DNA of 64,000 nucleotides from a virus: IMG/VR virus record IMGVR_UViG_3300029305_006397. The stretch is one strand, 5' to 3'. Shown in pieces: positions 20,744-62,595 of the stretch. The notes under the pieces were generated by a model. That model saw nothing but the letters and a program-made list of their open reading frames with translations, had not been told where the DNA came from and ran no database searches. A program made the position numbers and the translations under genes. Each line of letters opens with the position of its first letter. Position 1 is the first letter of the stretch.

Positions 20744-20746
20744 ATG

Positions 20747-20822
20747 TGGAGCTGGCGAAGGGACTTGAACCCGCAACCTGCTGATTACAAATCAGCTGCT
20801 CTGCCAATTGAGCTACGCCAGC
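20747..20822 (-). tRNA. tRNA-Thr(TGT)
   Basis: 76 nt cloverleaf; anticodon loop UUUGUAA; CCA encoded. Confidence 0.85.
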
Positions 20823-20831
20823 CCGATATAT

Positions 20832-20954
20832 TTACTGGGTTTCCAGTAAACGAATACGACGTTTGAGTTTATTGATAATGTTAACATTGACAACGGGATC
20901 GCGCATCTGCAGGATGTGCATGCGAATGGAGAGAGATTCGATAGAGTTTTTCAT
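20832..20954 (-). CDS. possible 40-aa protein between tRNAs
   Basis: own translation MKNSIESLSIRMHILQMRDP...; GAAAGAGGTAC SD as for 20128..20391. Confidence 0.3.
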   Translation of the reverse strand: MKNSIESLSIRMHILQMRDPVVNVNIINKLKRRIRLLETQ

Positions 20955-20984
20955 GGATTTGTACCTCTTTCATTGAATTTTAGA

Positions 20985-21061
20985 TGGAGCACCAGACGGG
21001 ACTCGAACCCGCAAACCTCCGGCTTGGAAGGCCAGCATTCTAACCATTGAACTACTGGTGC
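20985..21061 (-). tRNA. tRNA-Gly(TCC)
   Basis: 77 nt cloverleaf; anticodon loop CUUCCAA; CCA encoded. Confidence 0.85.
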
Positions 21062-21316
21062 ATATACCCTAATCTGTTATCGTACAGATTGGTAGAAACG
21101 CCGGATTTGCACCGGGACTCGCGAGTGTCTTTGGGCGCAGCCAGGGATCGAACCCGGAAATCAAGACTTGGCTTCCTGCATTTTGCCTCTTAAATTACTG
21201 AGCCATAAAACTCCCGGTGGGTTCTCAGGCCCACATTGCCCGTTTACCGAAGCAGTGACGGCAGTCCTTCAGGTGATAAGCTTAAAGTCACCCTTGCGAA
21301 TTTGTACGACAGGAGT

Positions 21317-21402
21317 TGGTGAATACAATTGGATTCGAACCAATGCTCGACGACTGAGCCAAAGGCATGGGCCGTCCGTGCTAACCGCTACACCATATAT
21401 TC
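21317..21402 (-). tRNA. atypical 86-nt tRNA-like gene, expanded anticodon arm, isotype unassigned
   Basis: acceptor GAATATA/TGTATTC, D-arm GTGTAGCGGTTAGCAC, T-arm ATTGGTTCGAATCCAAT, ACCA end; about 13 extra nt in the anticodon arm. Confidence 0.45.
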
Positions 21403-21550
21403 ATGCATCCGACTAAGCAGTAGTCGGCACTGTGAAACACGCCGCGTGACACCTCGTCTGCGTCTGCGTCTGCGATTTCAATCAGTGATATCGCCACTGA
21501 TCCTCCCCTTGTCATCGGGAAAACTATCTTGACCAAGCGATATTTGGGAC

Positions 21551-21627
21551 TGGTGGGGGCCACAGGACTCGAACCTGTGACCGATCGGTTATGAGCCGAC
21601 TGCTCTGACCAACTGCGCTAGACCCCC
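21551..21627 (-). tRNA. tRNA-Met or Ile2 (CAT)
   Basis: 77 nt cloverleaf; anticodon loop CUCAUAA; CCA encoded. Confidence 0.85.
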
Positions 21628-21878
21628 ATATGTAATGCCCCTGGTTGTATTAAATACATATGCATATGGATAGCTACGTCCCGCGAAGGAGTATTCGCGT
21701 GTATGCCTGACTTAAATCACGGACTCCAATTGTATTACTATGTGACGCATACTTTCGTTTTTATCCGCTATCTGGACGGGGCAGGTTAAGCGATAACCTA
21801 TGCCTTTCGACAACCCAGCCTCTAATAAGAGGCTGACGCTCATGGCCTAATGTCCTGTTTCAACTCGCCATGACGAGC

Positions 21879-21942
21879 AATCACCTGCAAGAATCGAACC
21901 TGCCTGGAAGTCAAGCTTCCTTTACTGCCGCCCAGAAGTGAT
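21879..21942 (-). other. truncated tRNA-like element lacking a D-arm
   Basis: acceptor ATCACTT/AGGTGAT, T-arm GCAGGTTCGATTCTTGC, hairpin GGAAG-CUUGA-CUUCC. Confidence 0.3.
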
Positions 21943-22006
21943 TAAGATGGATTGTTTGACTTTAATTTGATAAGCGGAGGCCAAACAACCAAATTTCTCT
22001 CACGAT

Positions 22007-22092
<86 letters not shown>

Positions 22093-22170
22093 AGATTGGT
22101 GGGCCTTAACGTCGGCCCAAACGACAGATGGGTTTATGCGCTGCGTAACCTCTTTTGCTCTTAACCGCGA

Positions 22171-22253
22171 TGGTGGGGATGGTGGGACTTGAACCCACAC
22201 GGTCTAGCCGTCGCATTTTGAGTGCGATGCGTCTGCCATTCCGCCACAACCCC
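22171..22253 (-). tRNA. tRNA-Leu(CAA)
   Basis: 83 nt type II tRNA; anticodon loop CUCAAAA; CCA encoded. Confidence 0.8.
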
Positions 22254-22366
22254 GCCTAGTATGGCATGCCGTTCGGCTTACGACGGCCATAACGCCGGAT
22301 TTAGGAAATCACCCAAGAAAGGAGGTGTACATATGAAACCGTATCTCACCCGGAATCAGATGTAAG

Positions 22367-22442
22367 TGGTGAAAGTGGCGGGATTCGAACCCGCGACTCA
22401 CAGATTAAAAGTCTGTTACTCTACCGACTGAGTTACACTTCC
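22367..22442 (-). tRNA. tRNA-Lys(TTT)
   Basis: 76 nt cloverleaf; anticodon loop CUUUUAA; CCA encoded. Confidence 0.85.
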
Positions 22443-22729: not shown

Positions 22730-23905
22730 TCAAGCTTCTGCTTTAAAATTATAGATGGGTTTAAAACGATCTACGATATCTACGGTTGGGCCAATGCAAT
22801 TAATAATTTCCTGATAATCCTTGTAAACAAAAGGAGCTTCATCCAAGGTTGATTCATTAATGCATGTGGAATATATGCCATTCATAGTTTCGGCATATTC
22901 TTCTACGGTAAATATCTTCTTTGCCTGTGCGCGAGAATACAGGCGACCAGCTCCATGAGGAGCAGAACAATTCCATTCGGTATTGCCCTTTCCTCTGCAG
23001 ATCAAAAGACCATCACGCATATTAAGAGGAATTACAAGAAACTGACCTTGCTGCGCAGAGATTGCGCCTTTGCGCAAAATCATTTCTTTCACATTGATAT
23101 AATTATGTACACTATCAATGCAATAATCGATTTCACCACCCATAGCAGATACGATTGTATGCAACATTATCCATCTATTCTGTTCAGCAAATTCCTGTAG
23201 AATTGCAACGTCATGAAGATAATCATCCATGTCCTGTCCGGTAAGATAACAAAGATCGGGATCAATTGCGATATGATGTTCAGACAGCCATTGCTGGCGC
23301 ATAACAGGTTCAATAAACTGCAGTTGCTCCATGCGCAAATTATAGTTGTATTTCTTTATGCGATTTACGGCGAGGTTCTGGTAGTATTGAGCCACTTTCA
23401 GGCCGATATTGCGACTGCCTGAATGAACAGCGATATATCCATTTTCATACGCTTCGATGAAATGGTTCCCACCTCCAAGAGTTCCAAGGGTACACTTTGC
23501 CCTTTCCTGGGTCGCTTTATCCAATTTGTCCCAGCACCGCAATTCTTCGAAATCTCGTTCCCATACCTTCTCAGTCGAATGTACATCCATACCAAACGGA
23601 ATACTAGATCGGATAGCGGCGTCCAATTCATCAAGGCGAGAATCAAAATCAATATTGGTTTGTACAAGTGATACACCACAACCGATATCTACGCCAACCA
23701 AATTCGGGCATACCTTATCCGTGATATGCATAGTAGTACCGATTACACAGCCAGCTCCGGCATGGGCATCCGGCATGATTCGAATATGTGCGTCCTTACC
23801 CAAAGGAGAATCCGCCATCTTTTTAATTTGATCGATAGCTTGATCCTCAATTGTCTTAGCATAAATGACGACATCATCACCATGGGTAGACTTATATATT
23901 TTCAC
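22730..23905 (-). CDS. rtcB: RtcB RNA 3'-phosphate/2',3'-cyclic phosphate ligase
   Basis: PDAHAGAG, GGGNHFIE, HSGSRNIG, HNY and HGAGR motifs; GTG start with AAGGTGA SD. Confidence 0.9.
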   Translation of the reverse strand: MKIYKSTHGDDVVIYAKTIEDQAIDQIKKMADSPLGKDAHIRIMPDAHAGAGCVIGTTMHITDKVCPNLVGVDIGCGVSLVQTNIDFDSRLDELDAAIRSSIPFGMDVHSTEKVWERDFEELRCWDKLDKATQERAKCTLGTLGGGNHFIEAYENGYIAVHSGSRNIGLKVAQYYQNLAVNRIKKYNYNLRMEQLQFIEPVMRQQWLSEHHIAIDPDLCYLTGQDMDDYLHDVAILQEFAEQNRWIMLHTIVSAMGGEIDYCIDSVHNYINVKEMILRKGAISAQQGQFLVIPLNMRDGLLICRGKGNTEWNCSAPHGAGRLYSRAQAKKIFTVEEYAETMNGIYSTCINESTLDEAPFVYKDYQEIINCIGPTVDIVDRFKPIYNFKAEA

Positions 23906-25948: not shown

Positions 25949-26905
25949 TTACGTTTTGTTCGGGCTAATTGGTACATCAAACATATCTACTCGTCCACGC
26001 ATAGTAACAAGAAAATTCGGAAGCTCAGACTTGTATTTACTTCGTTTCAATTCATTTTGAATAATTTCAAATCCTCGCTTATTTCGGGAGCGCTTTTCAA
26101 ATACCTCAGACATATCAAGTCCTTCCTTATGAAGATTGATCGCAATACGATGCATAATTCCACTTATATAAACATCATACGGGCGAATATCATAATCAAT
26201 ATAGCGTTTTGCAATATTTCTAAACGCAGTTTGATGTTTAACGTGGGCAAACCTCCCGTCAGACGAAGATCGAGCTGCCATCTTGAAACAACTATCTACA
26301 TGTTCGCCTTCCAATGGAGAACGAGAAACCGTTCCGAATCGGTTGGGATGTTCCCAAACACTTATTTTGCTAAGTTCTATGAGATCGTTAGCAAGTTTTG
26401 CAGATATTTCCAAATCGTAGATTTCGCCCTCGTCTGTGTGCAAAGTTACAAAGCCATCATGGATATCTTCACTCTTCAAGTGAACCAACACATCCAAATT
26501 ATCATTATAAATGCCTTCATAAATAGAACGCATCAGACAGGTATAGTACAGCACATTGTATTCTTCTTCAGTTTGAATCCTGGAGCAAAGAGCTTCAAAA
26601 TCTGCATTTGAGATGTATTTCTTTGAATTTTCCTTATACATTTCCCAAAACACGCCTTTATCAAATCTGCGAACAGCGCTAACGATATCTTTTCTGTTTA
26701 TAAAATAAGCATATTTTATAATAATGGTAAGATATTGAGATACAATGCGATCCGATACAGGTTTAGCCTCAATGAGAATATCAGCAATCGACTGCTGTGT
26801 AAAACTTTCAAAATCATATTCTTCCAAAGCGGTAAATGTTTTTGCAGTTCGTTTCAATCCAGAAGATTCGATTGAATCTAAAAACCGGGCATACGTTTCC
26901 TTCAT
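25949..26905 (-). CDS. hypothetical protein in integrase module
   Basis: 318 aa ORF, no firm motif. Confidence 0.55.
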   Translation of the reverse strand: MKETYARFLDSIESSGLKRTAKTFTALEEYDFESFTQQSIADILIEAKPVSDRIVSQYLTIIIKYAYFINRKDIVSAVRRFDKGVFWEMYKENSKKYISNADFEALCSRIQTEEEYNVLYYTCLMRSIYEGIYNDNLDVLVHLKSEDIHDGFVTLHTDEGEIYDLEISAKLANDLIELSKISVWEHPNRFGTVSRSPLEGEHVDSCFKMAARSSSDGRFAHVKHQTAFRNIAKRYIDYDIRPYDVYISGIMHRIAINLHKEGLDMSEVFEKRSRNKRGFEIIQNELKRSKYKSELPNFLVTMRGRVDMFDVPISPNKT

Positions 26906-27449: not shown

Positions 27450-28253
27450 TCAAATATATTCAAGACCAAGTTCCACGCTATTGAAAATGCTTTCTACTTC
27501 GGTATCCATGATGCCAATATACTTTAGTGTAACTTGCGGACTGGAATGACCAAACGCCTGTTGAAGTATAACCAGTGCTTTAGACTTATCTTCTGCGTTG
27601 TGCCATCTCCAATAGCCCCACGTTTTTCTCAGTGAATGCGACCCGATATTTTGTTTGATTCCAGCTTCCGCCGCTGTATCTTTTATAACTCTCCAGAGAT
27701 ATTTAGATTCAATCGGATCGTTTCCCTTTTGAGAAGGAAAAAGGTAATCGTCTAAATTATCTATTGGGTATTCTGAAATGAAATTCATAATTGCAGCCTG
27801 TACAGTTTGATTGAAAAACAGCTTTACAAATTTCTTTTGCTTCTTTTGCTTTTGCGGTTGCAAGGCATAGAATTGTTTAAAAGCAAGGTTTCCGGCATTA
27901 TTTCGTTCGAGAAAGAACGACCAGCGCAAAGTGCGAAGATCGGATGCCCGAACACCAACATTGATTCCGATCAAAAACAGTAGCTTGTTTCGCGAAGCAG
28001 TTTTTTTGCGACATACGCCAGAAGCTGACGTAATATGTTTATCAAATATGGCGATCATCGCCTGAATTTCTTCCTGGGTGCGAAATGCGTACACTTCTGA
28101 AGATTCGCCTGCAATTTTATTATTGCGGCTTTTATTGATCGAACCATCCAGATTGTACTTGACTTTCTTTTTCTGTTTACCGCCCTGCAAAACGCTAAGA
28201 GGAACGATGTTTGAAGTGTCCCGTTCAATCGGGAAAGCGACCACATTATTCAT
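27450..28253 (-). CDS. tyrosine recombinase / integrase
   Basis: R (GVRASDL), HSLRKT, GHSS..TLKYI catalytic-Tyr region; start placed at ATG 28253 overlapping upstream stop. Confidence 0.85.
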   Translation of the reverse strand: MNNVVAFPIERDTSNIVPLSVLQGGKQKKKVKYNLDGSINKSRNNKIAGESSEVYAFRTQEEIQAMIAIFDKHITSASGVCRKKTASRNKLLFLIGINVGVRASDLRTLRWSFFLERNNAGNLAFKQFYALQPQKQKKQKKFVKLFFNQTVQAAIMNFISEYPIDNLDDYLFPSQKGNDPIESKYLWRVIKDTAAEAGIKQNIGSHSLRKTWGYWRWHNAEDKSKALVILQQAFGHSSPQVTLKYIGIMDTEVESIFNSVELGLEYI

Positions 28254-28971
28254 GTACGATTTCAATCCTTTCTTTAATTTTTGATGTGTCAATGACCAAT
28301 TCATCTTCATCTCGGCCATTGAAATAAGCGAGGATTTCAGATTTATCGACGGTTGCCCTTTGAATATAACCTTTTTCATCGGCTATATCAAAGCGGTGGG
28401 CAAACCACTTTGCAGTTTCAAGACTCCAAGTCCACGAAAGACCATTGGGGTTACGACCCACAGAGACGCCACGATATACCGTAAGATGCTGAGGCAACCT
28501 TTCGTAATAAGCAAGTTCATCAGCATCCATGAGATACTTTTTATTTGCCTGACGGAACCACGATGCAGCTGTACGCAAGGAAACATTTGCATCTTGATTT
28601 GGATTTTCTACGTTTACCCATACAGTTGCCAACATCCGATCCCGTTCTTCCTTTGAAAGATAGGTGCGGATATGTTTTAGAAAAGTAAGCTGATAAGCTT
28701 TTCGGATCATCATGACGACGCCAAATGCATTAGTTTGCTTATCAATTACCGGAAGCATTGCTTCACGAGCAAGATTAAGCTCATTTGAATCTAACAGATT
28801 CAGCATTTTCCATTCGCCATTAATCATCGCTGGATGCGTTGCAGTTTCAAAAACAGGGTGATAGAGAATAAAAGGCAAATCGCTTTGATGGATATTCATA
28901 TATAAGAATATCCTTGCCATTCTCTTGACTTCATTCAAATCAGTTTGCCTTTTCATGCTCAATTCTCCCAT
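28246..28971 (-). CDS. possible ADP-ribosyltransferase-like protein (R-S-E pattern)
   Basis: C-terminal TVYRGV...GLSWTWS...EDELVID fits the R / S-x-T / E-x-E arrangement; weak. Confidence 0.3.
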   Translation of the reverse strand: MGELSMKRQTDLNEVKRMARIFLYMNIHQSDLPFILYHPVFETATHPAMINGEWKMLNLLDSNELNLAREAMLPVIDKQTNAFGVVMMIRKAYQLTFLKHIRTYLSKEERDRMLATVWVNVENPNQDANVSLRTAASWFRQANKKYLMDADELAYYERLPQHLTVYRGVSVGRNPNGLSWTWSLETAKWFAHRFDIADEKGYIQRATVDKSEILAYFNGRDEDELVIDTSKIKERIEIVHE

Positions 28972-47479: not shown

Positions 47480-47575
47480 AAGTGTTTCCTCCTATCTTTC
47501 CTTATGCGTTTGGCTTTAGGGGCTTGTGACCTTATGCCTTGCCGCATTAACAGGGCTTATGCCCTGCCACTCTGC

Positions 47576-47761
47576 TTAATCTCGATTGGAAAGCTCCGTG
47601 TGATAGATATGCACACTCTGAAGGCGTCTGCTTCCAAATTTCCGTCGAAATTCCTCTTTCGCATCTTTCATGTTTGCCTTGCTACCGTTTCGATGATCGC
47701 TTACATACTCAAATTCTCCGTAATCGTGACCATCATCATAAAGCGCAATGTAGTTTTTCAT
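47576..47761 (-). CDS. hypothetical protein
   Basis: tiled minus-strand ORF, no motif. Confidence 0.55.
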   Translation of the reverse strand: MKNYIALYDDGHDYGEFEYVSDHRNGSKANMKDAKEEFRRKFGSRRLQSVHIYHTELSNRD

Positions 47762-50230: not shown

Positions 50231-50298
50231 CCATACCCACGCCCCGGCAGGGCGTGACGCTCACGGCTTAAATGGCTTTTTATAGTCGCCGTGACGAC
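50231..50298 (-). ncRNA. pistol ribozyme (P-2)
   Basis: GUCG-UCACGGC-GAC-UAUAAAAAG-CCAU-UUAA-GCCGUGA-GCG-UCACGCCC-UGCCG-GGGCGUGG-GU-AUGG; loop/GCCGUGA pseudoknot and CCAU/AUGG helix; predicted G/U cleavage between 50236 and 50235. Confidence 0.75.
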
Positions 50299-50610
50299 TC
50301 AGACAATTATGCAGCGTTTGAACGGATTTTCGCAGGGGTCGCAACCGAAACCGAAATTTTCTCCGTATATATCGATATACTGAAGTCCAGCGAATTTGCC
50401 GTTCTGAATGGTTTTTAACTCCATTGTAGCGCGGCGCATAGCCTGTTTTGCCTGTTTAATGGTTACGTCGTCGATATTGTAGAATCTGTTTAGCTTGTTT
50501 TGAATTTTATTCAAGAAATTCATTGCAAGGTCATTTGTAACATTCTTTTTATCGGACTCCATGAAACAGTCAAACCCGTATGCACGAAGATAAAAACCCT
50601 GTTTTTTCAT
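50299..50610 (-). CDS. hypothetical protein
   Basis: stop abuts pistol P-2. Confidence 0.55.
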   Translation of the reverse strand: MKKQGFYLRAYGFDCFMESDKKNVTNDLAMNFLNKIQNKLNRFYNIDDVTIKQAKQAMRRATMELKTIQNGKFAGLQYIDIYGENFGFGCDPCENPFKRCIIV

Positions 50611-50633: not shown

Positions 50634-50698
50634 TTGAACCCGCCCCAAACGGGGCGACGCTTTGGGCCTAATCAACTATTTAAAGTCGCCCAAACGAC
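50634..50698 (-). ncRNA. pistol ribozyme (P-1)
   Basis: GUCG-UUUGGGC-GAC-UUUAAAUAG-UUGA-UUAG-GCCCAAA-GCG-UCGCCCC-GUUU-GGGGCGG-GU-UCAA, near-identical in layout to the published pistol consensus; predicted G/U cleavage between 50639 and 50638. Confidence 0.85.
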
Positions 50699-50955
50699 TA
50701 AACGCGCATTACATTGTCAAGATAAATGCGCATTGCACCCTTACGAATATATGCCCGACCTGCCGTCGAATAGTGGACTTTATGACGATGAAAACCCACA
50801 TATCCTTCAGGGTTAACCCATGCCGCAATATAATCGCATTCGAATTTATCGCCGTCGTCGGGTTCCCAAAGTGCAACGCCGAAACAGTTGGAAAAATGGC
50901 AAACGCCAACCGGGGCAATATTAGAATAACGCTTGTAAAGTGCTACATTTTTCAT
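50698..50955 (-). CDS. hypothetical protein
   Basis: stop codon G is the first nt of pistol P-1. Confidence 0.55.
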   Translation of the reverse strand: MKNVALYKRYSNIAPVGVCHFSNCFGVALWEPDDGDKFECDYIAAWVNPEGYVGFHRHKVHYSTAGRAYIRKGAMRIYLDNVMRV

Positions 50956-51885: not shown

Positions 51886-52037
51886 AACCACGTTCGGCAC
51901 GGCCTCGGCTTCCCTCTCAACCTTGCAGGGCTTGCGTCCTCTCGGGGTTCGTGGTTCGGCCTCGGGCTTGTGTCGTTCGGGTTCCGGTTCCGGGGTTCCG
52001 GTTCCGTTGCCGTCCTGACGTGTATTATGTTACACCA

Positions 52038-52122: not shown

Positions 52123-52341
52123 ATGTACGATAAAGATAAAGCGATAAAAAGACAAAACGATTTTAATAAATCGAATTATGATAGATTAAACACGACTATA
52201 CCGAAGGGACGCAAGGCCGATATAGTTGCATATTGCGATAGTATTGGAACCACGCCAAACGGCTTAATTAATGAATTGTTGCGGTTTGAATTGGGGTTTA
52301 CACCTGAACAATGGAAGGAACGGGCGACGGCTGAAGAATAG
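52123..52341 (+). CDS. Arc/ribbon-helix-helix-type DNA-binding protein
   Basis: NYDRLNTTIPKGRKADIVAYCDSIGTTPNGLINELL; paralog of 31474..31680. Confidence 0.55.
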   Translation: MYDKDKAIKRQNDFNKSNYDRLNTTIPKGRKADIVAYCDSIGTTPNGLINELLRFELGFTPEQWKERATAEE

Positions 52342-52446
52342 TAATACTGTATTTTTTGTTTAATGTTGCTATACTTTATAGCTAACCGTTTACGGTTAAT
52401 TATATGCGGTTAATTAACCGTGTTTGAAAATTGGGGCGAATTTTAG

Positions 52447-53125: not shown

Positions 53126-53154
53126 TTGACAACTAACCTTATCTGTGTTAAAAT
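53126..53154 (+). promoter_or_regulatory. sigma70-type promoter (TTGACA-17 nt-TAAAAT, TG extension)
   Basis: read directly; points into the plus-strand block. Confidence 0.6.
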
Positions 53155-53218: not shown

Positions 53219-53242
53219 TTATATTGCGTTGCTTATGTTTAT

Positions 53243-53376
53243 GCGCAGCAACTAACATCTCCATGGAGCGCGGAAGCGCGACCGTAACCCCGGAGGGCGT
53301 AAGCCCGTAGGTCGTAGCCCCCCTTCCCCAGAGGGAAGGTATGAAGCGCAGCGTAAGCAAGCGACCCCTGCTGCGC
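53243..53376 (+). ncRNA. candidate structured RNA (GC-rich multi-hairpin element)
   Basis: 8-bp closing helix GCGCAGCA/TGCTGCGC enclosing hairpins CGCG-GAAG-CGCG, GGGC-GUAA-GCCC, CCUUCCC-CAGA-GGGAAGG; local GC far above genome average. Confidence 0.35.
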
Positions 53377-53537
53377 CCCACGCGCGGCAGTATACTATAA
53401 TCTTTCTAAGTTAATCTATATAAGTATTGAAGTGAAAATTTCCACGCAAATCTGTGGAAAAAAACGCACCCTCTATAAATATTTCCACAAAATCGCGTGG
53501 ATTTTTTATCAGAGGCTGAAAGGAGGGAAACATGTGA

Positions 53538-54389
53538 TTGGATTTTCAAGATAAAGACAAAACTGAATATCCTGAAACACGAAATAAAGAGCTAAGTTAT
53601 TATCAACAACGTTTTTTGAAACTGCCAAGAATGATAATCGAAAATTTCAACATCGGAGATCAGCGTCTAGCTGTATATACTTATTTGGCAATACGATGTG
53701 GACTTGATTATAAAGTTGACACAGATTTAAAAACGATCATTCTTTCTTTCGGTAAAAAACCCGATAGACATCCAGGTCAAATAAATGATAAAACTGAAAA
53801 CTCCTTATCAAAACTGATCGAGCTTGGGTATATAAAAAAGTTAAGCCAGGATTGCGATTTAAATGTCAATCAAACCTTCTTTTTCGATCAGGAATGGATA
53901 GATAACAATTGCCCTCAATTCACGATTGCTTATATAGACGAAATCGAACGAATACTGAGCAGTGACATTTCAAATAAAGACATCACCCTTTTAGTGTTCG
54001 CTTATTTAAGATTAAAGATACACAGGCGTCCAAATTCTATGCCAAAGAAATATTGGGGAAATCAGGAAGGCTATAAGGCCGATAATCCAGAGGTTTATAA
54101 CTGTTATTATCGAGACATTGCTAAAGAGCTTGGACTAACAGTTCATGTAGTTCAAAAGGCGGTTGATGCTTTAATTGAGATTGGCTTAATATATGCAGAA
54201 GAACTCCCCAGACATTTGGTGAAAAGCAGCAATGGACAAGAAAGATGGATGACTGGACAAACACTTTTTTGCAATACATACAAACGCGATGCAAAATATG
54301 AGTTTGTCAAAGGTAAACAGTATTATGAGAAAGAGATCAAAAATAAAAAGAAAATAATAGAACAAGCGAAAGGAGGTAACTCCATATGA
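53538..54389 (+). CDS. putative DNA-binding protein (winged-helix), possible replication or transcription initiator
   Basis: TTG start 10 nt after AGGAGGG; YRDIAKELGLTVHVVQKAVDALIEIGLIY HTH-like; iterons upstream. Confidence 0.35.
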   Translation: MDFQDKDKTEYPETRNKELSYYQQRFLKLPRMIIENFNIGDQRLAVYTYLAIRCGLDYKVDTDLKTIILSFGKKPDRHPGQINDKTENSLSKLIELGYIKKLSQDCDLNVNQTFFFDQEWIDNNCPQFTIAYIDEIERILSSDISNKDITLLVFAYLRLKIHRRPNSMPKKYWGNQEGYKADNPEVYNCYYRDIAKELGLTVHVVQKAVDALIEIGLIYAEELPRHLVKSSNGQERWMTGQTLFCNTYKRDAKYEFVKGKQYYEKEIKNKKKIIEQAKGGNSI

Positions 54390-54589: not shown

Positions 54590-54648
54590 TCTAAAATTCT
54601 CAGACTAAGTAAGGATGAATGAAATGGGTAAATAAAGAAGGTGTTTGT

Positions 54649-57534
54649 ATGCCTCTGGATAAGCAAATTCAAATTATCTCGACTGATACTGCGGGATTCT
54701 ACAGCAACCATGAGGCAAGGTTGCATTTGAAAAATCATAAACTTCGAAGCGAAAGAAAAATACTTAAAAAAGGCGGAGTCGTTAAAAGAGCAAATGGAGA
54801 CAAACGGATCGTTATTGGTTTAGATGAAATTGAAAATAAGCTTGCCGTATTTGGTATTTACTCTACTGACATAGAAGACATCATAAACGAACGCTTTAAT
54901 TTTGACGACTATACCTTAGAGGATATAGGCGAAATTAAGCATTTGATTTCCGATTACAACTTGAAAAAGAAGCTAATTGAAATCAAGAACGCTGCAATCA
55001 GCGAAAGCAAAGAGCAGCTTTTGAAGCTCTTGGCGAATAAAGTCCAGGAGAACGTAAGCTCAAATGGAAGGCATCATACGAGGTACTTGAGAGAGAATAG
55101 CGTTGTAAACAGTAATATCATTTCGGTATTTGATTCGTCCTTTACGAGAATGATCGGAGCAAAGGAAAATGAATTATGCGAAGATTTTATGGTGATTCAG
55201 GTATTTTACTTTGATGTATTGAAAGATATTCTGTATCATGGGTATACATACAAGGGCGAGAAATATATTTATTTTACTTCATCTGCCGGACAGATCAGGA
55301 CAAAAAAAGCGGTTTTTGTAAAAGAAAAAATCTGGAACGAGCATGAGCGTACAATTATGTGTGGATTAACGCTTGACGAGATAAATCGCAAGGGAGGTAA
55401 CAATCCCAATAAGCATCTGGCTTATATGGCTTTGAGCAATTCAGCCACTGATTTGTGGCCTGAGTTCGATATTGATAAAGCCATTGTAATCGATGATTTT
55501 GAAACCAATGTATTTGGAACCTACGATCTCGTGGATGATGCGGACTATACTATTACCAGGGTTTCAGATTTTGTTCCTATATCTCATACAGATGGCGCTG
55601 GTATGATACTCCCCTGTGCCTTTGGAAAGACCCAGAAAAATAAAATGGTTCGATTACCGTGGATTAAAGGATTGCTTGGCGTTTTTGATTTTAGGAAGTT
55701 TATAATTGATCAAGGAGCTTCGCCAGTAATTCGAGATATTTACGGAAAAGAACACAATTTGATTTCCGAAGATATCCAGGTAGTTTTCACCAAATCTCAG
55801 CATAAAATGTGGAAATACTATAACTCCTGGAACGAATATAAAGCGGCTTATAAGAAATATGGTTGTACTGCCGGATATACCAATGAAGAAGAGTTGAATA
55901 TTCCTAATGCGTCCATCAACTATCAAATGCTTCAAACACTGACGGATATTACTCCGGAAGAGATTTTAAAAATTGCAAATAAATCTATTGGCTGTTTGGA
56001 AAATATGACGAGCAGTATAGATAACATTCGAGCAGCATTTGGTGGAGCAAATTATAATCAGGATAAGAGTAGTTTGAACAAAGCATTAGATTTATACCCT
56101 GATCTATTAAACGATGATTGGATTAAGAGAACCCTCCGGGCAATTCGCGATAGCTTGATCAAGGATTATAAAGCTGGAAAATTGAGAGTGCGAGGCAAAT
56201 ACACATTCTTACTCCCTGATTTTTATGCTGCATGCCAATATTGGTTCCTTGGGATCGAGGAACCGGAAGGGCTTTTGCAAGATGGAGAGGTATTTTGTTG
56301 GTTATTTCCTGAAAGCGAAAAATTAGATTGCTTGCGAAGTCCTCATTTATATCGCGAACATCCTATTCGCAGGAATGTCGCATGGATAGGTTATAAAGAA
56401 AGACAAGCCAAGATCAGAGAATGGTTTGGTACAAACGCAGTTTATACGAGCTGCCATGATTTGATCAGCAAGATTTTGCAGTTTGATGTTGACGGAGATA
56501 AGAGTCTGGTGGTGGCAGATAAAACTATTATTGACGTTGCAGAGCGTAATATGCAAGGAATTGTTCCTTTGTATTATAACATGCGTAAAGCTTCTCCAGT
56601 GCAATTGAATAACGAAACGATCTATAACGGGTTGAACGCAGCATTTGTTGGCGGTAATATTGGAATATACAGCAATAATATTTCAAAGATTTGGAATAGT
56701 GAAGTTTTCATAAGCGGCAGCAATGAAGAACGTCGGGAAGCATTGGATATTATTAAGTTGCTTTGTATGGAAAATAATTTCGTTATCGATTATGCCAAAA
56801 CTCTGTATAAACCAGAACGCCCTAAGCACATTCACGAAAGAATCCTGGCCTTTACAAGAAATAAGCTTCCTCATTTTTTCGTTTATGCTAAAGACAAGCT
56901 GGACGATCAAGTGGAAAAACGCAATGGCAGTTTCGTAAATCAGTTGGATGATATAATACCTGTCCCCAGGTTCCATTTCAAAAAACTTGGTTTAGAAAAA
57001 GTTGAACATAGGTTTTTAATGCATGATTCAAATTGCACTGCAAGAGTAGCTTTTACAGATTCGGGTAAAATCATTTCAGAAGAGACAGACCCTTTAATTT
57101 TGGCGTACCATGCATTAAATAAAAAATATTTTTTGGACTTGGGAGAAGTATTACAGGTGAACTATTGCAATACTGAGTTGATATCAATATACGCTAAAAA
57201 TGGTGCTCTTGCCAAGAAGCAGCAAATGATCGAAGAAACGAAAAGCATTCTATCTGAATTTGGATATAATCAAAATCAAATTGTAGATATTTTAGTCGAT
57301 TATGTGTATGGGAAAAATAGGTCGAATGCAAAAGCACTGCTATGGCTTTGCTATGGCGATTCGATTTATAAGAATATGCTACAATATTTAATTCCGGATT
57401 TTAAGACGATACAGTGCGTAGATTGCGATGCATTATTTTCTGTTTCTGCTAAAAATCAATATGCATGCCGTTGTCCAGAATGTGCTAAAAAGCAGAAAAA
57501 GGCCGAAAGGCAATTAAAAAAGATGCTGTCTTAA
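54649..57534 (+). CDS. YonO-like single-subunit RNA polymerase (two-barrel, RdRP-related family)
   Basis: FTSSAGQIRTKKAVF, LRSPHLYREHP and metal-binding QFDVDGDKSLVV motifs in the order seen in YonO and cellular RdRP-type polymerases; start placed at ATG 54649 (track start 54619). Confidence 0.65.
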   Translation: MPLDKQIQIISTDTAGFYSNHEARLHLKNHKLRSERKILKKGGVVKRANGDKRIVIGLDEIENKLAVFGIYSTDIEDIINERFNFDDYTLEDIGEIKHLISDYNLKKKLIEIKNAAISESKEQLLKLLANKVQENVSSNGRHHTRYLRENSVVNSNIISVFDSSFTRMIGAKENELCEDFMVIQVFYFDVLKDILYHGYTYKGEKYIYFTSSAGQIRTKKAVFVKEKIWNEHERTIMCGLTLDEINRKGGNNPNKHLAYMALSNSATDLWPEFDIDKAIVIDDFETNVFGTYDLVDDADYTITRVSDFVPISHTDGAGMILPCAFGKTQKNKMVRLPWIKGLLGVFDFRKFIIDQGASPVIRDIYGKEHNLISEDIQVVFTKSQHKMWKYYNSWNEYKAAYKKYGCTAGYTNEEELNIPNASINYQMLQTLTDITPEEILKIANKSIGCLENMTSSIDNIRAAFGGANYNQDKSSLNKALDLYPDLLNDDWIKRTLRAIRDSLIKDYKAGKLRVRGKYTFLLPDFYAACQYWFLGIEEPEGLLQDGEVFCWLFPESEKLDCLRSPHLYREHPIRRNVAWIGYKERQAKIREWFGTNAVYTSCHDLISKILQFDVDGDKSLVVADKTIIDVAERNMQGIVPLYYNMRKASPVQLNNETIYNGLNAAFVGGNIGIYSNNISKIWNSEVFISGSNEERREALDIIKLLCMENNFVIDYAKTLYKPERPKHIHERILAFTRNKLPHFFVYAKDKLDDQVEKRNGSFVNQLDDIIPVPRFHFKKLGLEKVEHRFLMHDSNCTARVAFTDSGKIISEETDPLILAYHALNKKYFLDLGEVLQVNYCNTELISIYAKNGALAKKQQMIEETKSILSEFGYNQNQIVDILVDYVYGKNRSNAKALLWLCYGDSIYKNMLQYLIPDFKTIQCVDCDALFSVSAKNQYACRCPECAKKQKKAERQLKKMLS

Positions 57535-57696
57535 ATAGCACAAAATGAGCGCTAAAACCATTGAAATTCAATGGTTTTAGCATTTACTATAATTTGAAAT
57601 ATGCCGAATTTCAGTGTTTTTTGTTTTATCAAAATTGACAGAATCGGATAGGAGATGTTCATTTGGGAGAAATTTCCTGTACGCGGAGGAATAAAT

Positions 57697-58056
57697 ATGA
57701 ATAAACAAAATATATCTAAAAGCTATACTAAAGCGATGTTGATTCGTGATACGGCAGATAAGTGTTTTTTGTCTGAAACTCCCGTTGAAAGAATGGGAGT
57801 TAAACGAGCGTTAGCAATTACAACCGCCGTATACAACACTTTAGAGGCAAAAGTAAAAGAGCTACTTTCCTGTGCTGCTCCTGGAGTAGATATAGCTATA
57901 AAGCTATTCGAAGGGATCACATTAAAGGGAAGGCATGTTCCTGAAATTATCAAGCAGAACAATCTAACGGGTGAAATGATGGTGTATAAGGCACACATTA
58001 AACCGGAAGCGCAATTTTCAAAAAGACTTAGAGATTCGCTGATTGTTCAAAATTAA
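57697..58056 (+). CDS. HU/IHF-like DNA-binding protein
   Basis: MNKQNISK..., IKLFEGITLKGRHVPE...GEMMVYKAHIKPEAQFSKRLRD follows the HU arm layout; start at ATG 57697 with GGAGGAA SD. Confidence 0.45.
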   Translation: MNKQNISKSYTKAMLIRDTADKCFLSETPVERMGVKRALAITTAVYNTLEAKVKELLSCAAPGVDIAIKLFEGITLKGRHVPEIIKQNNLTGEMMVYKAHIKPEAQFSKRLRDSLIVQN

Positions 58057-58222
58057 TCCTATATATCCAGCGGAAACGCTGTTTATATATAAACGGGTCG
58101 GGACTTTGAGATAGGTTCCGGCCTGACTTCTTTCATTCATATTTACACCTTTCTCTAGCTGCGCCACGGTTGTTAAAAGCAGCCGTGGTGTTATTTTGAA
58201 GGTAACTGTGATGAAAAGTTTG

Positions 58223-58300
58223 ATGGAAGTAGTTTAAGGCAAAACAGCTGAAGGTACAAAACAAAAACGGAAGTTGAGGGTGCAAATCCCTCCTTCCATC
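58223..58300 (+). other. tRNA-like element without anticodon arm (T-loop UGCAAAU)
   Basis: acceptor ATGGAAG/CTTCCAT, D-like hairpin GTTT-AAGGC-AAAC, A-rich linker, T-arm GAGGG-TGCAAAT-CCCTC. Confidence 0.35.
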
Positions 58301-58305
58301 CGTAT

Positions 58306-58383
58306 TGCGGAGTGGAGAAGCGGACTATCTCGCCAGCCTCATAAGCTGGAGATCGCTGGTTCGAATCCAGCCTCTCGCAACCA
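58306..58383 (+). tRNA. tRNA-Met(CAT), irregular acceptor stem
   Basis: D, anticodon (CUCAUAA) and T arms align with bacterial tRNA-fMet layout; ACCA end; one extra nt or mismatch in acceptor. Confidence 0.7.
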
Positions 58384-58386
58384 CAT

Positions 58387-58461
58387 GTGGAGTTCGTATA
58401 ATGGTTAGTACCTGAGATTTTCAATCTCAAAACAGGGGTTCAACTCCCCTACTCCTCACCA
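58387..58461 (+). tRNA. tRNA-Glu(TTC)
   Basis: 75 nt cloverleaf; anticodon loop UUUUCAA; CCA encoded. Confidence 0.8.
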
Positions 58462-58630
58462 GTTAGTTTTTTGCTGTAATGATCTTCGGACTTATGGCTT
58501 AAATCGCATGCTTCGGATTCCTTCGGGGCCGAGGCTTTATTTTGAAAAATTGTTCGCTAGTCAGTATGCGACTAATAAAATACTGATCAGAAACTACCAT
58601 CTGATTTCTTTTAAATCAGGTGGTTTATAT

Positions 58631-58707
58631 CAGGGTGTATATCAGTTTGGTAGATGGCCGCATTTGGGATGCGGAGGCCGCTGGTTCGAATCCAGTCACC
58701 TTGACCA
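58631..58707 (+). tRNA. tRNA-Pro(TGG)
   Basis: 77 nt cloverleaf; C1-G72; anticodon loop UUUGGGA; CCA encoded. Confidence 0.85.
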
Positions 58708-58748
58708 TGATCGTACTCAAGAATGCTACGGCGCTTGGGTCTATTTAT

Positions 58749-58776
58749 AGGGTGGCGATGCCACCCTTTTATTTTT
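58749..58776 (+). terminator. intrinsic terminator inside tRNA island
   Basis: AGGGTGGC-GAT-GCCACCCT followed by TTTTATTTTT. Confidence 0.65.
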
Positions 58777-58780
58777 ACAT

Positions 58781-58870
58781 GCTGATATGGCCGAGTCTGG
58801 CTTAAGGCGGTGGTCTTGAAAACCATTGGAGGTAACACTCACGGAGGTTCGAATCCTTCTATCAGCGCCA
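58781..58870 (+). tRNA. tRNA-Ser(TGA)
   Basis: 90 nt type II; anticodon loop CUUGAAA; CCA encoded. Confidence 0.85.
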
Positions 58871-59023
58871 GTATTAGCTCTCCTGCATAAAAATGTGCTA
58901 TTGATGACAGAAACAGGAGATAAGAGTCCCGCAAGTAGACACGCGGTTCAGTGCTCGTACAGGTGTTTTGTTGAGCAAGCAGTCTATTAAGAATAAACAC
59001 TGACAGCAGGAAAGACTGCATAT

Positions 59024-59115
59024 GGAGAGGTGGCTGAGTGGCTGAAAGCGGCACCCTGCTAAGATGTTTGCCCTGGTGACAGGGCACGAGAGTTCGAATC
59101 TCTCCCTCTTCGCCA
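59024..59115 (+). tRNA. tRNA-Ser(GCT)
   Basis: 92 nt type II; anticodon loop CUGCUAA; long variable arm; CCA encoded. Confidence 0.8.
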
Positions 59116-59286
59116 AACAAATGTGGTTCCGGTAGAGCCTGACGCATCAGTACCGACCTTGATGGAAAGGGTATCCCGTAGCTAAGACGAGTCCATAGGC
59201 GGGGATTTCTGCCACGTTGATTTAGCTCATCTGCCAAGTGCAGAAGGAGTTCCTGGATGTGTTACACAACTAGCGCATCCTGATTT

Positions 59287-59361
59287 GGTTCTATAGTTTA
59301 GGGGCTAGAATGCCAGCCTGTCACGCTGGAGACACGGGTTCGATTCCCGTTAGAGCCGCCA
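59287..59361 (+). tRNA. tRNA-Asp(GTC)
   Basis: 75 nt cloverleaf; anticodon loop CUGUCAC; CCA encoded. Confidence 0.85.
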
Positions 59362-59420
59362 ATTTGCCTCACACGCCTCTTTGTCGTATGACAAATGCGG
59401 ACTAAGTGAGGTTTTTTCAT

Positions 59421-59496
59421 GGGGTTATAGCTCAGTTGGAAGAGCGCGTGCTTTGCAAGCATGAGGTCAAGGGTTCGAGACCCTTTAGCTCCACCA
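59421..59496 (+). tRNA. tRNA-Ala(TGC)
   Basis: 76 nt cloverleaf; G3-U70; anticodon loop UUUGCAA; CCA encoded. Confidence 0.85.
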
Positions 59497-59498
59497 AT

Positions 59499-59570
59499 CG
59501 CCGGGTGGTGTAAATGTTAGCACCGCAGACTATGATTCTGCGAATAAAGGTTTAAATCCTTTTCCGGCGA
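59499..59570 (+). tRNA. atypical tRNA with anticodon ATG (formally His), no CCA
   Basis: acceptor CGCCGGG/TCCGGCG, D-arm GTGT..GCAC, anticodon arm GCAGA-CUAUGAU-UCUGC, T-arm AAAGG-TTTAAAT-CCTTT. Confidence 0.5.
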
Positions 59571-59903
59571 TTATGTTATCTATTTCCCAACATACTGTCA
59601 TGCGTGGGTGGAATAAGAAGAGACGGGCGTTTTCGGTCGGCATAAACCGAAGTTTGGCATTTGAGGTCAAATGAGTTTGATGAATGCAATCCCGTGCTGC
59701 TATGCGGTATTTGCAGGAGAACAACAGGGGTTTGCGTATAACCACAAGGCAGCTAGGTACAATCCGAAAGAAAAACGGTTATAAAGGGCGTCCCGCCACC
59801 TATATCCCAAGTGTGGAACGATAAAGCAGGTGTTTCGCTGCCTATAAATGCGAAATTTAATCAGCTCCGTGTTGGATATTTTGACATGCGGAGCATTTTA
59901 TAT

Positions 59904-59979
59904 GGCATCATAGCTCAGTCGGTAGAGCAGCTGGCTGTTAACCAGCAGGTCAAGAGTTCGAGCCTCTTCGGTGCCTCCA
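59904..59979 (+). tRNA. tRNA-Asn(GTT)
   Basis: 76 nt cloverleaf; anticodon loop CUGUUAA; CCA encoded. Confidence 0.85.
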
Positions 59980-60100
59980 CGGGTAGATAAGATAACAAAA
60001 CGCGCCACTACCCCAAGGCAGATACATACGCATTCGAGAAGCGCAATGGCTGCGATCAAATTGGCAGATGTGTAGGCGGCAGACTTAACTGTCTTTATTT

Positions 60101-60177
60101 GCTGTCATAGCTACAATTGGCAGAGCGACGGATTTGTAATCCGTAGGTTCAGAGTTCGAGTCTCTGTGGCAGCTCCA
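60101..60177 (+). tRNA. tRNA-Thr(TGT), second copy
   Basis: 77 nt cloverleaf; anticodon loop UUUGUAA; CCA encoded. Confidence 0.85.
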
Positions 60178-60211: not shown

Positions 60212-61549
60212 ATGGATTTTATGAATGAAATATCGAAAATTGGACTTACGAAAGATCAATATGATGAATGCCTTCAATTGATTATTGACAAGAAGAATAA
60301 TGTAATCGATATTGATTGGCAGGAAATCTGTGATCGATTCAGCTTGCCGATCACAACTGATTATTTGAGGAAAGCAAATGCAGGCGTATTCGGCGGAGCT
60401 TTTATAGCTGAGTATTTAAAGACAAAAGAAACATGCCAGGTAGAAACAAAGTATAGTGGCAGCAGTGAAATTTCAATTAATAAAGACGGTAATTATACGA
60501 GCACGAAACTTATTGAAATGAATGAAGAGCAATCTAAAGATCCCTCTTATATATTGAAAGCACATGGATTTGATCCCATATGTTGGCAGCTGATTAGTGC
60601 AAGAAATAATATTCGACAGGTTATTTCAAAAGCAGATGGCGTAGTTACTTTATATGCCAGCTTCATTACAGTGAGGCCTATATCAGAAGTTGAATTGCCC
60701 CTTGAAAAAATTGAAGAGTTTTTTGATAAACTTGATCGGAATTATTCTCTTCCAAGATTACAGGAGAATCGAATTTATCTGAGTGGAGACAAAATGCTTC
60801 TGATCGATATCGCTGACTTGCACATGAACTTACAGGCTTCGATGTTTACTACCGGAAACGAATATAATTGCGAGATTGCAGAAAAATTATTTTTTCATGT
60901 TATCGAAGATGTTTTAAACCGCACAAAGAATTATAAATTTGAAGAAATCAATTTTATTATTGGCGGAGATATGCTTAATGGAGACAATCTGGCTGGGACA
61001 ACTACAAAAGGTACAGCTCAGGTGAGTGATTTGCATTATTATGACGCATATGAAAAATTATGTGCAATGACAATTAAAGCAATTGATTTGTTGAAGAGAA
61101 AGTGCAGAGTAAACGTGATTTATGTAATGGGGAATCATGATGAGTTAACCGGGTTTAAACTGGCAAAATATATTGATGCTTGGTTTAGAGATGATGACGG
61201 AGTGACTGTTGATTATCAGCCGTTTGCACGAAAGTATCGTTTGTATGGTAAAACGCTTTTATGTTTTGCTCATGATGGTAAGATTCAAAAATTACCAGCT
61301 ATTATAGCGGATGAAGCAAGAGATTTGTGGGGAAAAGCTACAATGACAGAAGTGTTTTTGCAGCACTTGCATACTGAACAGGTATTAATCGAAGATAATA
61401 ACATTAGGATTCAGCGCTTGCCTACTATTAGCGGTAGAAGCAAATGGAGTGCTGATCAGGGATATAATTCCCGGCGTCAATGTAAATCCTTTATTTTTGA
61501 TGCCGAGGAAGGATTGAAAGATATTTTATATACGACGATCCCGGCATAA
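60212..61549 (+). CDS. metallophosphoesterase (calcineurin-like) domain protein
   Basis: IDIADLH, IIGGDMLNGDN, VMGNHDE, FAHDGK, LQHLH motifs. Confidence 0.6.
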   Translation: MDFMNEISKIGLTKDQYDECLQLIIDKKNNVIDIDWQEICDRFSLPITTDYLRKANAGVFGGAFIAEYLKTKETCQVETKYSGSSEISINKDGNYTSTKLIEMNEEQSKDPSYILKAHGFDPICWQLISARNNIRQVISKADGVVTLYASFITVRPISEVELPLEKIEEFFDKLDRNYSLPRLQENRIYLSGDKMLLIDIADLHMNLQASMFTTGNEYNCEIAEKLFFHVIEDVLNRTKNYKFEEINFIIGGDMLNGDNLAGTTTKGTAQVSDLHYYDAYEKLCAMTIKAIDLLKRKCRVNVIYVMGNHDELTGFKLAKYIDAWFRDDDGVTVDYQPFARKYRLYGKTLLCFAHDGKIQKLPAIIADEARDLWGKATMTEVFLQHLHTEQVLIEDNNIRIQRLPTISGRSKWSADQGYNSRRQCKSFIFDAEEGLKDILYTTIPA

Positions 61550-61566: not shown

Positions 61567-62595
61567 ATGGCAAGTTCCGGCAATAAGCCATTGAGAAAAA
61601 AAGAGGCCATTGCTACGCCAGAAACAATGAATTGTTTGCGATGCAATAAGCCTTTTGATAGAGATATTTTTTATGATTCAGATAGTGAACAATTTCAGTC
61701 CGTTGGCAAAATCCCTTATTGTAAGGAATGTCTGGATGAAATGCGCCGACAGAATGTAAAGAAGTATAAGAACTTAGGTTATCGTAATTATGAGCGTAAA
61801 GCAGTTGAGCGAGTTTGCATGATGCTTGATTTGTATTATGCCGATAAGATTTTTGATGCCGCAATTGGAGAAAAAGAGAAGTGTCCAGACACACCGTTTA
61901 TGTCTTGCTACATGAAACATGTAAAGCTATACCAATATCGAAAAAAGGATTACAACTCTACAATTGCAGACAGATACAAAGAGGCAAAAGATAGCATACC
62001 AATTATGTCGATGAACATGCTTGAAGATGAAAAGGTAGAAGAAGAACTTCGAAAAGCGGAACAGTTTTTTGGAAGTGGGTTTGAACCTGAAGATTATAAG
62101 TTTCTTTATGATCAATATACGGACTGGACAACCAGGCATGAATGCGAAACAAAGTCTCAGGAAGAGATGTTTAAATCGATCTGCTTTACCCAGTTGGATT
62201 TGCTGAAAGCAAATCGAATGGGATTAGACACAAAGGATTTGAATTTTACTTTTTTGAAGCAGCTTGAAGCTGCAAAGCTGCAGCCCAAGCAAAATGCAAG
62301 CGAAACTGTGGCGGACACTCAAACATTTGGTACTTTAATTGATAAATGGGAAAACACCCGGCCCATACCAGAAATCGATGAAGAATTGCGGGATGTTGAC
62401 AAAATCGGCCTTTATATAGATGTATTTTTCAGGGGACATTTGGCAAAAATGATGGGCTTGAAAAATGGCCTATCTAATTTGTATACGAAGTTTATTGAAA
62501 AGTATACTGTAAAGAAGCCTGAATATAAAGATAATGAGGACGGAGAAGCCTTGTTTGATATGATTTTTGGAAGATCGGATTTGGGCGATAATTAA
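61567..62595 (+). CDS. hypothetical protein, position suggests small terminase or packaging partner
   Basis: N-terminal CLRC...CKEC zinc ribbon; stop overlaps terminase ATG. Confidence 0.3.
   Translation: MASSGNKPLRKKEAIATPETMNCLRCNKPFDRDIFYDSDSEQFQSVGKIPYCKECLDEMRRQNVKKYKNLGYRNYERKAVERVCMMLDLYYADKIFDAAIGEKEKCPDTPFMSCYMKHVKLYQYRKKDYNSTIADRYKEAKDSIPIMSMNMLEDEKVEEELRKAEQFFGSGFEPEDYKFLYDQYTDWTTRHECETKSQEEMFKSICFTQLDLLKANRMGLDTKDLNFTFLKQLEAAKLQPKQNASETVADTQTFGTLIDKWENTRPIPEIDEELRDVDKIGLYIDVFFRGHLAKMMGLKNGLSNLYTKFIEKYTVKKPEYKDNEDGEALFDMIFGRSDLGDN

Follow-up and report, generated by a model that had tools for sequence, protein, structure and literature searches.

A YonO-type single-chain RNA polymerase gene and a conserved leader with a candidate promoter in the genome of an uncultured SPbeta-like phage

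YonO of phage SPbeta is, to our knowledge, the only single-chain two-barrel RNA polymerase of bacteria or phages that has been studied biochemically; the crAss-like virion polymerase is another two-barrel enzyme of phages, and the single-chain lineage is thought to have split from the cellular RNA polymerases before LUCA. The present analysis concerns a gene of this type, and a conserved leader located downstream of it, in a 64,000 nt stretch of viral DNA (IMG/VR record IMGVR_UViG_3300029305_006397), which is referred to as the window. As an RNA polymerase YonO strictly requires DNA templates, works with high processivity and resists pausing; it has no trigger-loop homology, and a 3D>3N mutant of its Asp triad is inactive (Forrest et al. 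2017, PMC5467207). Plaque formation requires YonO, which transcribes 37 late genes as a single operon, from a start site that lies 3' of yonN and 5' of yonK and of an unannotated non-coding RNA (PMC5467207). The YonO promoter and any cofactors that may be needed were left open in 2017 (PMC5467207), and a search of the available literature found no later definition of either.

The + strand of the window has an open reading frame (ORF) without interruption at positions 54619-57534, i.e., 971 amino acids (aa) counted from the first ATG. The in-frame ATG at 54649 is the preferred start because a GAAGG ribosome-binding site is 6-7 nt 5' of it, the public JGI metagenome protein P0001 is identical to the resulting 961-aa form, and conservation in the family begins at residue 3 of this form. 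Family conservation was read from an alignment of 48 sequences with 41-86% identity to the query, which includes YonO-clade proteins from Bacillus, Geobacillus and others. An open frame of 2.9 kb in DNA of 36% G+C, with E ~0 matches to thousands of proteins, represents a real gene and not a chance reading frame. An earlier note, made from the sequence alone, had described a protein of 961 or 971 aa with the motifs SSAGQIR, RSPHLYREHP and DVDGD in this order, and the translated ORF confirms all of this. The features of the gene are as follows.

54649-57534, + strand: polymerase gene, YonO-type single-chain two-barrel RNA polymerase; 961 aa, or 971 aa from the in-frame ATG at 54619
54772-54948, + strand: N-terminal insertions, aa 42-57 and 63-100, seen in the alignment and absent from SPbeta and Bacillus-clade YonO
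55279-55299, + strand: SSAGQIR, aa 211-217; without variation in the family, and the same in YonO (SSAGQIRTKK)
55585-55602, + strand: HTDGAG; D315 is the candidate first-barrel Mg-binding Asp (cf. Qde1 D709 and Rpb2 D837), in an invariant column
55648-55671, + strand: VRLPWIKG; R335 and K340 are the first-barrel basic pair (cf. Qde1 R738/K743 and Rpb2 K979/K987)
56335-56364, + strand: RSPHLYREHP, aa 563-572; R563-x-P565 is the second-barrel R-x-P (cf. Qde1 R962/P964 and Rpb1 R446/P448)
56485-56499, + strand: DVDGD, aa 613-617, with the catalytic Asp triad D613, D615 and D617; invariant and aligned to DNDGD of YonO
57415-57483, + strand: C-terminal four-cysteine cluster C923, C926, C942 and C945; invariant in the 48 sequences

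Sequence comparison places the protein in the YonO family. BLASTP against SPbeta YonO shows 44% identity over residues 149-952 (~800 residues), and the segment 13-50 aligns as well (E 1e-4). The SSAGQIRTKK segment is the same in both proteins, and the other motifs differ at single positions (LRSPHLYREH/LRSPHLFREH and QFDVDGDK/QFDNDGDK). A tblastn search of 50,697 phage records gave matches in 39, among them SPbeta (SPBc2) yonO with 43.6% identity over residues 149-952 (E 0), Clostridium botulinum phage D-1873 with 46.5%, and Psychrobacillus phage Perkons with 39.8% over residues 13-954; megablast of the region against the phage records gave no match. PF05183, the cellular-type RNA-dependent RNA polymerase (RdRP) family, is the one significant Pfam family (39.4 bits against a gathering cutoff of 23.8, E 4.3e-10), and it also matches YonO-clade homologues. 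In PHROGs the protein belongs to phrog_8308 (E 4e-231), a family without an assigned function, and no NCBIfam model matches even SPbeta YonO. An exhaustive search of 1.84 billion representatives gave 1,147 clusters at 50% identity, 336 of them at E < 1e-30, and homologue searches had >2,700 and >4,600 proteins among the matches listed. Since the family is this large and several phage records already name the homologues RNA polymerases, the gene is a new member of a known family and not a new kind of enzyme.

Eight residues are invariant in all two-barrel RNA polymerases, and in Qde1 these are D709, R738, K743, R962, P964, D1007, D1009 and D1011 (Ruprich-Robert & Thuriaux 2010, PMC2919709). All eight are present in the window protein as D315, R335, K340, R563, P565, D613, D615 and D617, and each is invariant in 48 of 48 sequences. 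The order of the residues, the R-x-P and the DxDGD agree with Qde1, as does the R-to-K spacing of 5 (R-x4-K). Both barrels are thus found in the single 961-aa ORF, with the first-barrel residues at aa 315-340 and the second-barrel residues at aa 563-617. The basic residues of the first barrel are therefore present and invariant; the earlier note had held that an absence of the conserved lysines there would be fatal to its assignment. The four C-terminal cysteines probably form a zinc ribbon, because they are invariant and sit in two predicted beta-hairpins; pairwise alignment shows that the corresponding segment of SPbeta YonO carries paired cysteines as well.

Structure modeling is consistent with this assignment. 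The AlphaFold2 model based on the 48-sequence alignment has a mean confidence (pLDDT) of 86.5 and a predicted TM-score (pTM) of 0.77. It displays two beta-hairpins at 918-933, a long helix at 90-137, and small strands and helices in the N-terminal insertions. A Foldseek comparison with 350,542 PDB chains produced ten significant matches, each to RDR2 of maize or Arabidopsis or to QDE-1 of Neurospora (probability 1.00, E 1.5e-15 to 8e-9, 640-950 aligned columns); the next match has an E of 0.6. There is no significant primase, helicase, multisubunit-polymerase or T7-type match among the PDB chains, so that an unrelated family such as primase or helicase, the outcome that would have spoken against the earlier note, was not seen. 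The placement in the YonO and cellular RdRP-related branch is borne out by PF05183, by the identity to YonO and by Foldseek together. The best structural matches in BFVD are phage proteins named RNA-dependent RNA polymerase. HMMER searches of the PDB sequences, both single-sequence and profile, gave nothing relevant and did not reach QDE-1, which indicates that no YonO structure has been deposited.

Comparison with QDE-1 and RDR2 (7y7t, 7w82, 7eu1 and 7rqs) shows the same single-chain organization with two double-psi beta-barrels, the same Pfam family and the same eight active-site residues. However, sequence identity is only 12-14% and TM-scores are 0.36-0.48, and these enzymes copy RNA for gene silencing and have no phage context, whereas the YonO branch is DNA-dependent. 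The beta and beta-prime subunits of multisubunit RNA polymerases share the DxDGD Mg loop, the R-x-P, and the first-barrel Asp and basic pair. The window enzyme differs in that it is one polypeptide and approximately one quarter of the size of the multisubunit core, and neither beta nor beta-prime/Rpb1 chains gave a Pfam, PDB-sequence or Foldseek match to it. The T7-type polymerases are a functional analogy only, in that a dedicated phage enzyme serves late transcription, presumably from a short conserved promoter. Their right-hand fold is unrelated, and the sole Foldseek match, N4 mini-vRNAP (3c46), has an E of 7.3 and represents noise.

SPbeta YonO is 839 aa in length and the window protein is 961 aa. 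The additional length consists of insertions at 42-57, 63-100 and 133-142 and of four smaller ones, and the insertions at aa 42-57 and 63-100 make up a large share of it. In the annotation of some SPbeta-like Bacillus phages, yonO is split in two and another gene sits between the parts; the window copy is uninterrupted. The polymerase match is 0.3-1.3 kb longer than expected in several relatives (L037 7001-11071, L041 1065-5235, L042 1177-4363 and L044 1488-4674), which implies an intervening element, e.g., an intron, an intein or a homing endonuclease.

The neighborhood of the gene is also that of yonO. In SPbeta the order is yonP, yonO, a stem-loop, yonN (HU family), a 1.7-kb non-coding spacer, yonK, yonJ (exonuclease), yonG and yonF (terminase). 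A common order of small ORF, polymerase, HU-family gene, spacer, YonJ, YonG and terminase is found in the Geobacillus, B. altitudinis and Aquibacillus prophages (loci L085-L087). The window has the small ORF 5' of the polymerase gene, the HU-like gene 3' of it, the RNA-rich spacer, a nuclease in the YonJ position and YonG; the large terminase is next in L002, the 86%-identical relative. The features of this region of the window are as follows.

53126-53154, + strand: strong sigma-70-type promoter-like site heading the rightward block, TTGACA, 17 nt, TG-TAAAAT; 11/12, a match to the consensus only
53538-54389, + strand: 283-aa protein, first gene of the rightward block; weak winged-helix/MarR-like signal, position kept in L002 and L003
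54386-54589, + strand: 67-aa acidic ORF in the position of SPbeta yonP; isoelectric point 4.1, 17 Asp+Glu
57551-57581, + strand: 14-bp hairpin directly after the polymerase stop; a stem-loop is annotated at this point in SPbeta
57561-57590: weak promoter-like site for the HU/IHF-like gene
57697-58056, + strand: 119-aa protein at the place of SPbeta YonN, very likely a divergent DNA-binding protein of the HU/IHF fold
58223-60177, + strand: RNA-rich spacer between the HU-like and late genes, with a tRNA-like element, ten tRNA genes and a drum RNA
58223-58300, + strand: tRNA-like element, 39.9 bits with the Rfam tRNA model; not called by ARAGORN, conserved in L002 and L003
59675-59782, + strand: drum RNA, 62.1 bits against a cutoff of 43; within the tRNA cluster, in the presumed late-operon leader
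60212-61549, + strand: metallophosphoesterase/exonuclease in the YonJ position; phrog_704 'DNA repair exonuclease', weak YonJ similarity (E 0.006)
61567-62595, + strand: YonG homologue, E 1e-51 to SPbeta YonG

The polymerase gene had been taken by the earlier note as the start of the rightward block, but it is actually the third gene, after the 283-aa winged-helix protein and the 67-aa ORF. The 67-aa ORF and the winged-helix stop overlap, and 60 nt separate the end of this ORF from the polymerase start. In all of the YonO loci that were compared (SPbeta YonP, L002, L003 and L085-L087), an ORF of 58-86 aa precedes the polymerase gene. The 67-aa ORF is unrelated in sequence to YonP, with no BLASTP similarity, and it is the position alone that is conserved. 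The acidic protein could be a polymerase cofactor or an inhibitor of the host polymerase. The GC skew changes sign near 52-54 kb, and the site at 53126-53154 is likely the host-polymerase promoter of the polymerase operon, judging from its sequence.

The HU-like partner is more divergent than that of SPbeta and is below the Pfam cutoff (13.3 bits with PF00216 against 22.4, E 0.1). Its fold is very likely HU-like. PF00216 matches 6 of 7 members of its family (best E 1.4e-6; homologues are 38-48% identical), the pairwise comparison with YonN gives an E of 0.006, and the top 25 Foldseek matches are all HU, IHF or Hbb (E ~1e-3) with a model whose pLDDT is only 69.9. The HU-like neighbor named in the earlier note is thus very likely real, though divergent. 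Downstream of it the spacers differ, in that the window has a tRNA array and a drum RNA and SPbeta has an unannotated non-coding RNA. A DUF3800-VIII RNA motif is at L001 10183-10248 (+ strand; L001 is the SPbeta locus) with 47.5 bits against a cutoff of 40.2, approximately 260 nt upstream of yonK and within the spacer transcribed by YonO, and it may belong to the non-coding RNA of Forrest et al. In the window spacer there is a tRNA-His with anticodon ATG at 59498-59571.

The stretch 3' of the HU-like gene is ~97% conserved between the window and L002, while the surrounding coding sequence is ~85% conserved. It contains a 165-nt conserved leader with four elements, which recur in 16 distinct relatives whose polymerases are ~56-86% identical.

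58059-58093, + strand: element 1, hairpin CAGCG-GAAA-CGCTG with TATATA arms and a CAG...CTG base; the stem co-varies
58094-58125, + strand: element 2, hairpin; sequence variable between relatives
58126-58157, + strand: element 3, ACTTCTTTCATTCATATTTACACCTTTCTCT; invariant, asymmetric and unstructured, with the core TACACCTTTCT at 58144-58154
58161-58191, + strand: element 4, hairpin of ~13-14 bp with many compensatory changes; its G.U pairs are valid on the + strand only

Elements 1 and 4 are recovered by RNAalifold, with 16 of 24 pairs retained via double changes. The top of element 1 co-varies as CAGCG/CGCTG, CAGTG/CACTG, CAGCT/GGCTG and CAGTA/TACTG. A fixed hairpin, CAGCGGAAACGCTG, was considered as the conserved element and was replaced by this structure-based view; it occurs in only ~11-13 of 81 loci because the stem co-varies. 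Element 3 is different in that its sequence is invariant although the polymerases of the relatives are only ~60% identical. Its consensus is (A)CTTCTTT-CATTCATATTT(n)ACACCTTTCT, which is ~30 nt in length and located ~80 nt past the HU-like gene. In the 64-kb window there is a single copy of the core TACWCCYTTCT. It has 23 occurrences in 81 related loci, all on the + strand and 590-841 nt past the polymerase stop, and it is absent from the other 2.43 Mb of these loci. The exact 23-nt pattern was found in 19 stretches among 2.9 million IMG/VR contigs, with one copy in each. In all 19 the pattern is directly 3' of a YonO-like and an HU-like gene; sixteen are on contigs that had been collected for their YonO-like gene, and for the remaining three tblastn shows this arrangement on the same strand. 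In SPbeta the core is matched once in 14 kb, at L001 9142-9152, where the surrounding sequence is ATATCTACTCCCTTCTTTTC (L001 9137-9156). This match is between the two P_YonO mapping primers, L001 9084-9107 and about 9301-9327.

The best explanation of the gene itself is a functional YonO-family enzyme in a scheme of host and then phage transcription, and a probability of about 0.85 is given to it; the order of transcription is the part that we infer. The points that weigh against it are the low confidence of the model at the catalytic loop (residues 612-616), the pairing of D315, R335 and K340 with Qde1 residues, which was made from the order and spacing of the motifs without superposition, and the database names for the family, which read 'RNA-dependent RNA polymerase'. 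Those names, the Pfam family, the nearest solved structures (RDR2 and QDE-1) and the unusual richness of the window in structured RNAs and ribozymes would all suit an enzyme like QDE-1 or RDR2 that copies or amplifies phage or host RNA. This is improbable in view of the closest characterized relative, which is by far YonO (44% identity against 12-14% for RDR2 and QDE-1) and which has a strong preference for a DNA template and is required for late-gene mRNA synthesis (PMC5467207); the synteny of the SPbeta late operon is also retained. Even less credence is given to a degenerate or repurposed relative that does not polymerize RNA, e.g., a structural or regulatory protein. The ~120 extra residues relative to YonO, mostly N-terminal, could be read in this way, but the eight catalytic-site residues and the four-cysteine cluster are all retained and do not vary, the protein has its full length and a fold modeled with high confidence, and there is clear purifying selection across hundreds of clusters.

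Element 3 (58126-58157) is tentatively proposed, from sequence comparison and as a reading that is less likely than not, as the promoter or initiation region recognized by YonO-type polymerases, with the HU/IHF-fold protein possibly a DNA-bending cofactor. Several observations count against a promoter. The degenerate positions of the core were picked after seeing SPbeta, and in an out-of-sample test the core was not found in L085-L087, even with one mismatch allowed. SPbeta and the B. altitudinis locus share only the shorter ACTCCCTT there, plus collinear blocks further downstream. In the clade of relatives with 49-52% identity there is no recognizable copy of the core. Primer and motif sequence scans of the representative-genome collection, made to place position 2225998 of the 168 genome, found nothing, and the published SPbeta start is therefore narrowed only to the interval between the primers. 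The reverse complement of the block also reads GAAAGGTG-N5-ATG, i.e., a Shine-Dalgarno sequence and an ATG. An even chance is given to the alternative that the polymerase assignment is right and the promoter is elsewhere, with element 3 being an RNA-level leader signal or the ribosome-binding site and start codon of a short ORF on the minus strand. Such a signal could be for processing, stability or antitermination, or an anti-Shine-Dalgarno-like sequence in a read-through transcript. This agrees with the reverse complement, with the loss of the motif in the three Bacillus-clade loci and the 49-52% clade, and with the flanking hairpins, which act as + strand RNA structures by their G.U pairs and covariation; because they do so, element 1, which is 5' of the block, is itself transcribed. 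A minus-strand small ORF as the cause of the conservation was considered and rejected, since the window and L002 differ by a 2-nt indel that changes the minus-strand frame, and yet the palindrome downstream is still 100% identical; the conservation of the block is thus not protein-coding. Against a leader signal, invariance at ~60% polymerase identity, the fixed strand and position and the single copy per genome suit a recognition site of a dedicated polymerase, and the SPbeta match is within the mapped start-site interval.

For the YonO-type enzyme, the two-stage reading is the best supported because of the orthologue-level similarity to YonO and the conserved synteny. Early on, the host polymerase would initiate at 53126-53154 and transcribe the winged-helix gene, the 67-aa ORF and the polymerase gene. 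Expression of the HU/IHF-like gene would come either from transcripts that run through the hairpin 3' of the polymerase stop or from the gene's own weak promoter-like site at 57561-57590. Host transcription would terminate at the hairpins 3' of the HU-like gene, and the phage polymerase would initiate in or near 58126-58157. The DVDGD triad and D315 would hold the catalytic Mg ions, and R335, K340 and R563 would contact the nucleotide and the RNA end. The tRNA array and the rightward late operon would then be transcribed as one long unit that includes the YonJ-position nuclease, YonG, terminase and structural genes. The protein is identified as a YonO-family polymerase, and its template preference, timing and transcribed gene set are presumed from the comparison with YonO. 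The suggestion in the earlier note that the enzyme transcribes part of this genome is supported in this respect by the synteny with the SPbeta late operon, whereas the transcription itself is a presumption of the same kind.

The remainder of the window is a leftward arm (1-51 kb) with early-type genes, i.e., an RtcB ligase, two integrase-like genes and a Sak4-like protein. The integrase-like genes are at 27450-28379 and 25949-26905, both on the - strand, with matches to phrog_216 (E 1e-39) and phrog_5830 (E 2.5e-4); their presence suggests a temperate lifestyle, as in SPbeta. Judging from metagenomic relatives of 100-170 kb, the genome belongs to a temperate phage of the SPbeta type that is uncultured, and it differs from SPbeta in that the host is uncultured as well. 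There are 22 tRNA genes in two clusters, 12 at 18775-22442 (- strand) and ten at 58223-60177 (+ strand), and a tRNA with a 2-nt anticodon call is at 21317-21402. Three pistol ribozymes and one twister-P5 ribozyme are above the Rfam gathering scores, and the RtcB gene matches phrog_1075 (E 3e-127).

21809-21878, 50231-50299, 50634-50699, 47517-47576 and 22730-23905, - strand: pistol and twister-P5 ribozymes and RtcB gene
19031-19192, - strand: RAGATH-36 RNA, 73.2 bits against a cutoff of 70; within the tRNA cluster

Cleavage by ribozymes that cut themselves generates 2',3'-cyclic phosphate and 5'-OH ends, and RtcB uses such ends as substrates; the co-occurrence of the ribozymes and the RtcB gene may for this reason be functional. 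The 'motif-rich hub' (51.3-53.5 kb) that the earlier note had placed beside the polymerase consists of short two-copy repeats only. A tandem GGGTTCCGGTTCCG x2 is at 51979-52006. A small ORF at 52124-52342 (+ strand) in the divergent intergenic region begins MYDKDKAIKRQNDFNKSNYDRLNTTIPKGRKADIVAYCDSIG and by eye resembles a ribbon-helix-helix regulator. A GC-rich island at 53240-53385, in the AT-rich divergent region 5' of the rightward block, has several possible GNRA-capped hairpins. It folds only marginally better than shuffled sequences (z -1.96 on the + strand and -1.12 on the - strand), and no Rfam family matches it.

The comparison shows that the whole YonO module, i.e., the small ORF, the polymerase, the HU-fold protein, the RNA-rich leader and the late operon, is retained far outside Bacillus, in uncultured phages that are abundant. 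The enzyme adds no new kind, and the part worth following is the conserved leader block as a candidate for the undefined YonO promoter; comparison in this clade yields a specific sequence of 30 nt as the candidate recognition site. If element 3 is such a promoter, it would be the first that is defined in sequence for a single-chain two-barrel RNA polymerase, and the tRNA array of the phage would be made by an enzyme that has no trigger loop and is insensitive to pausing.

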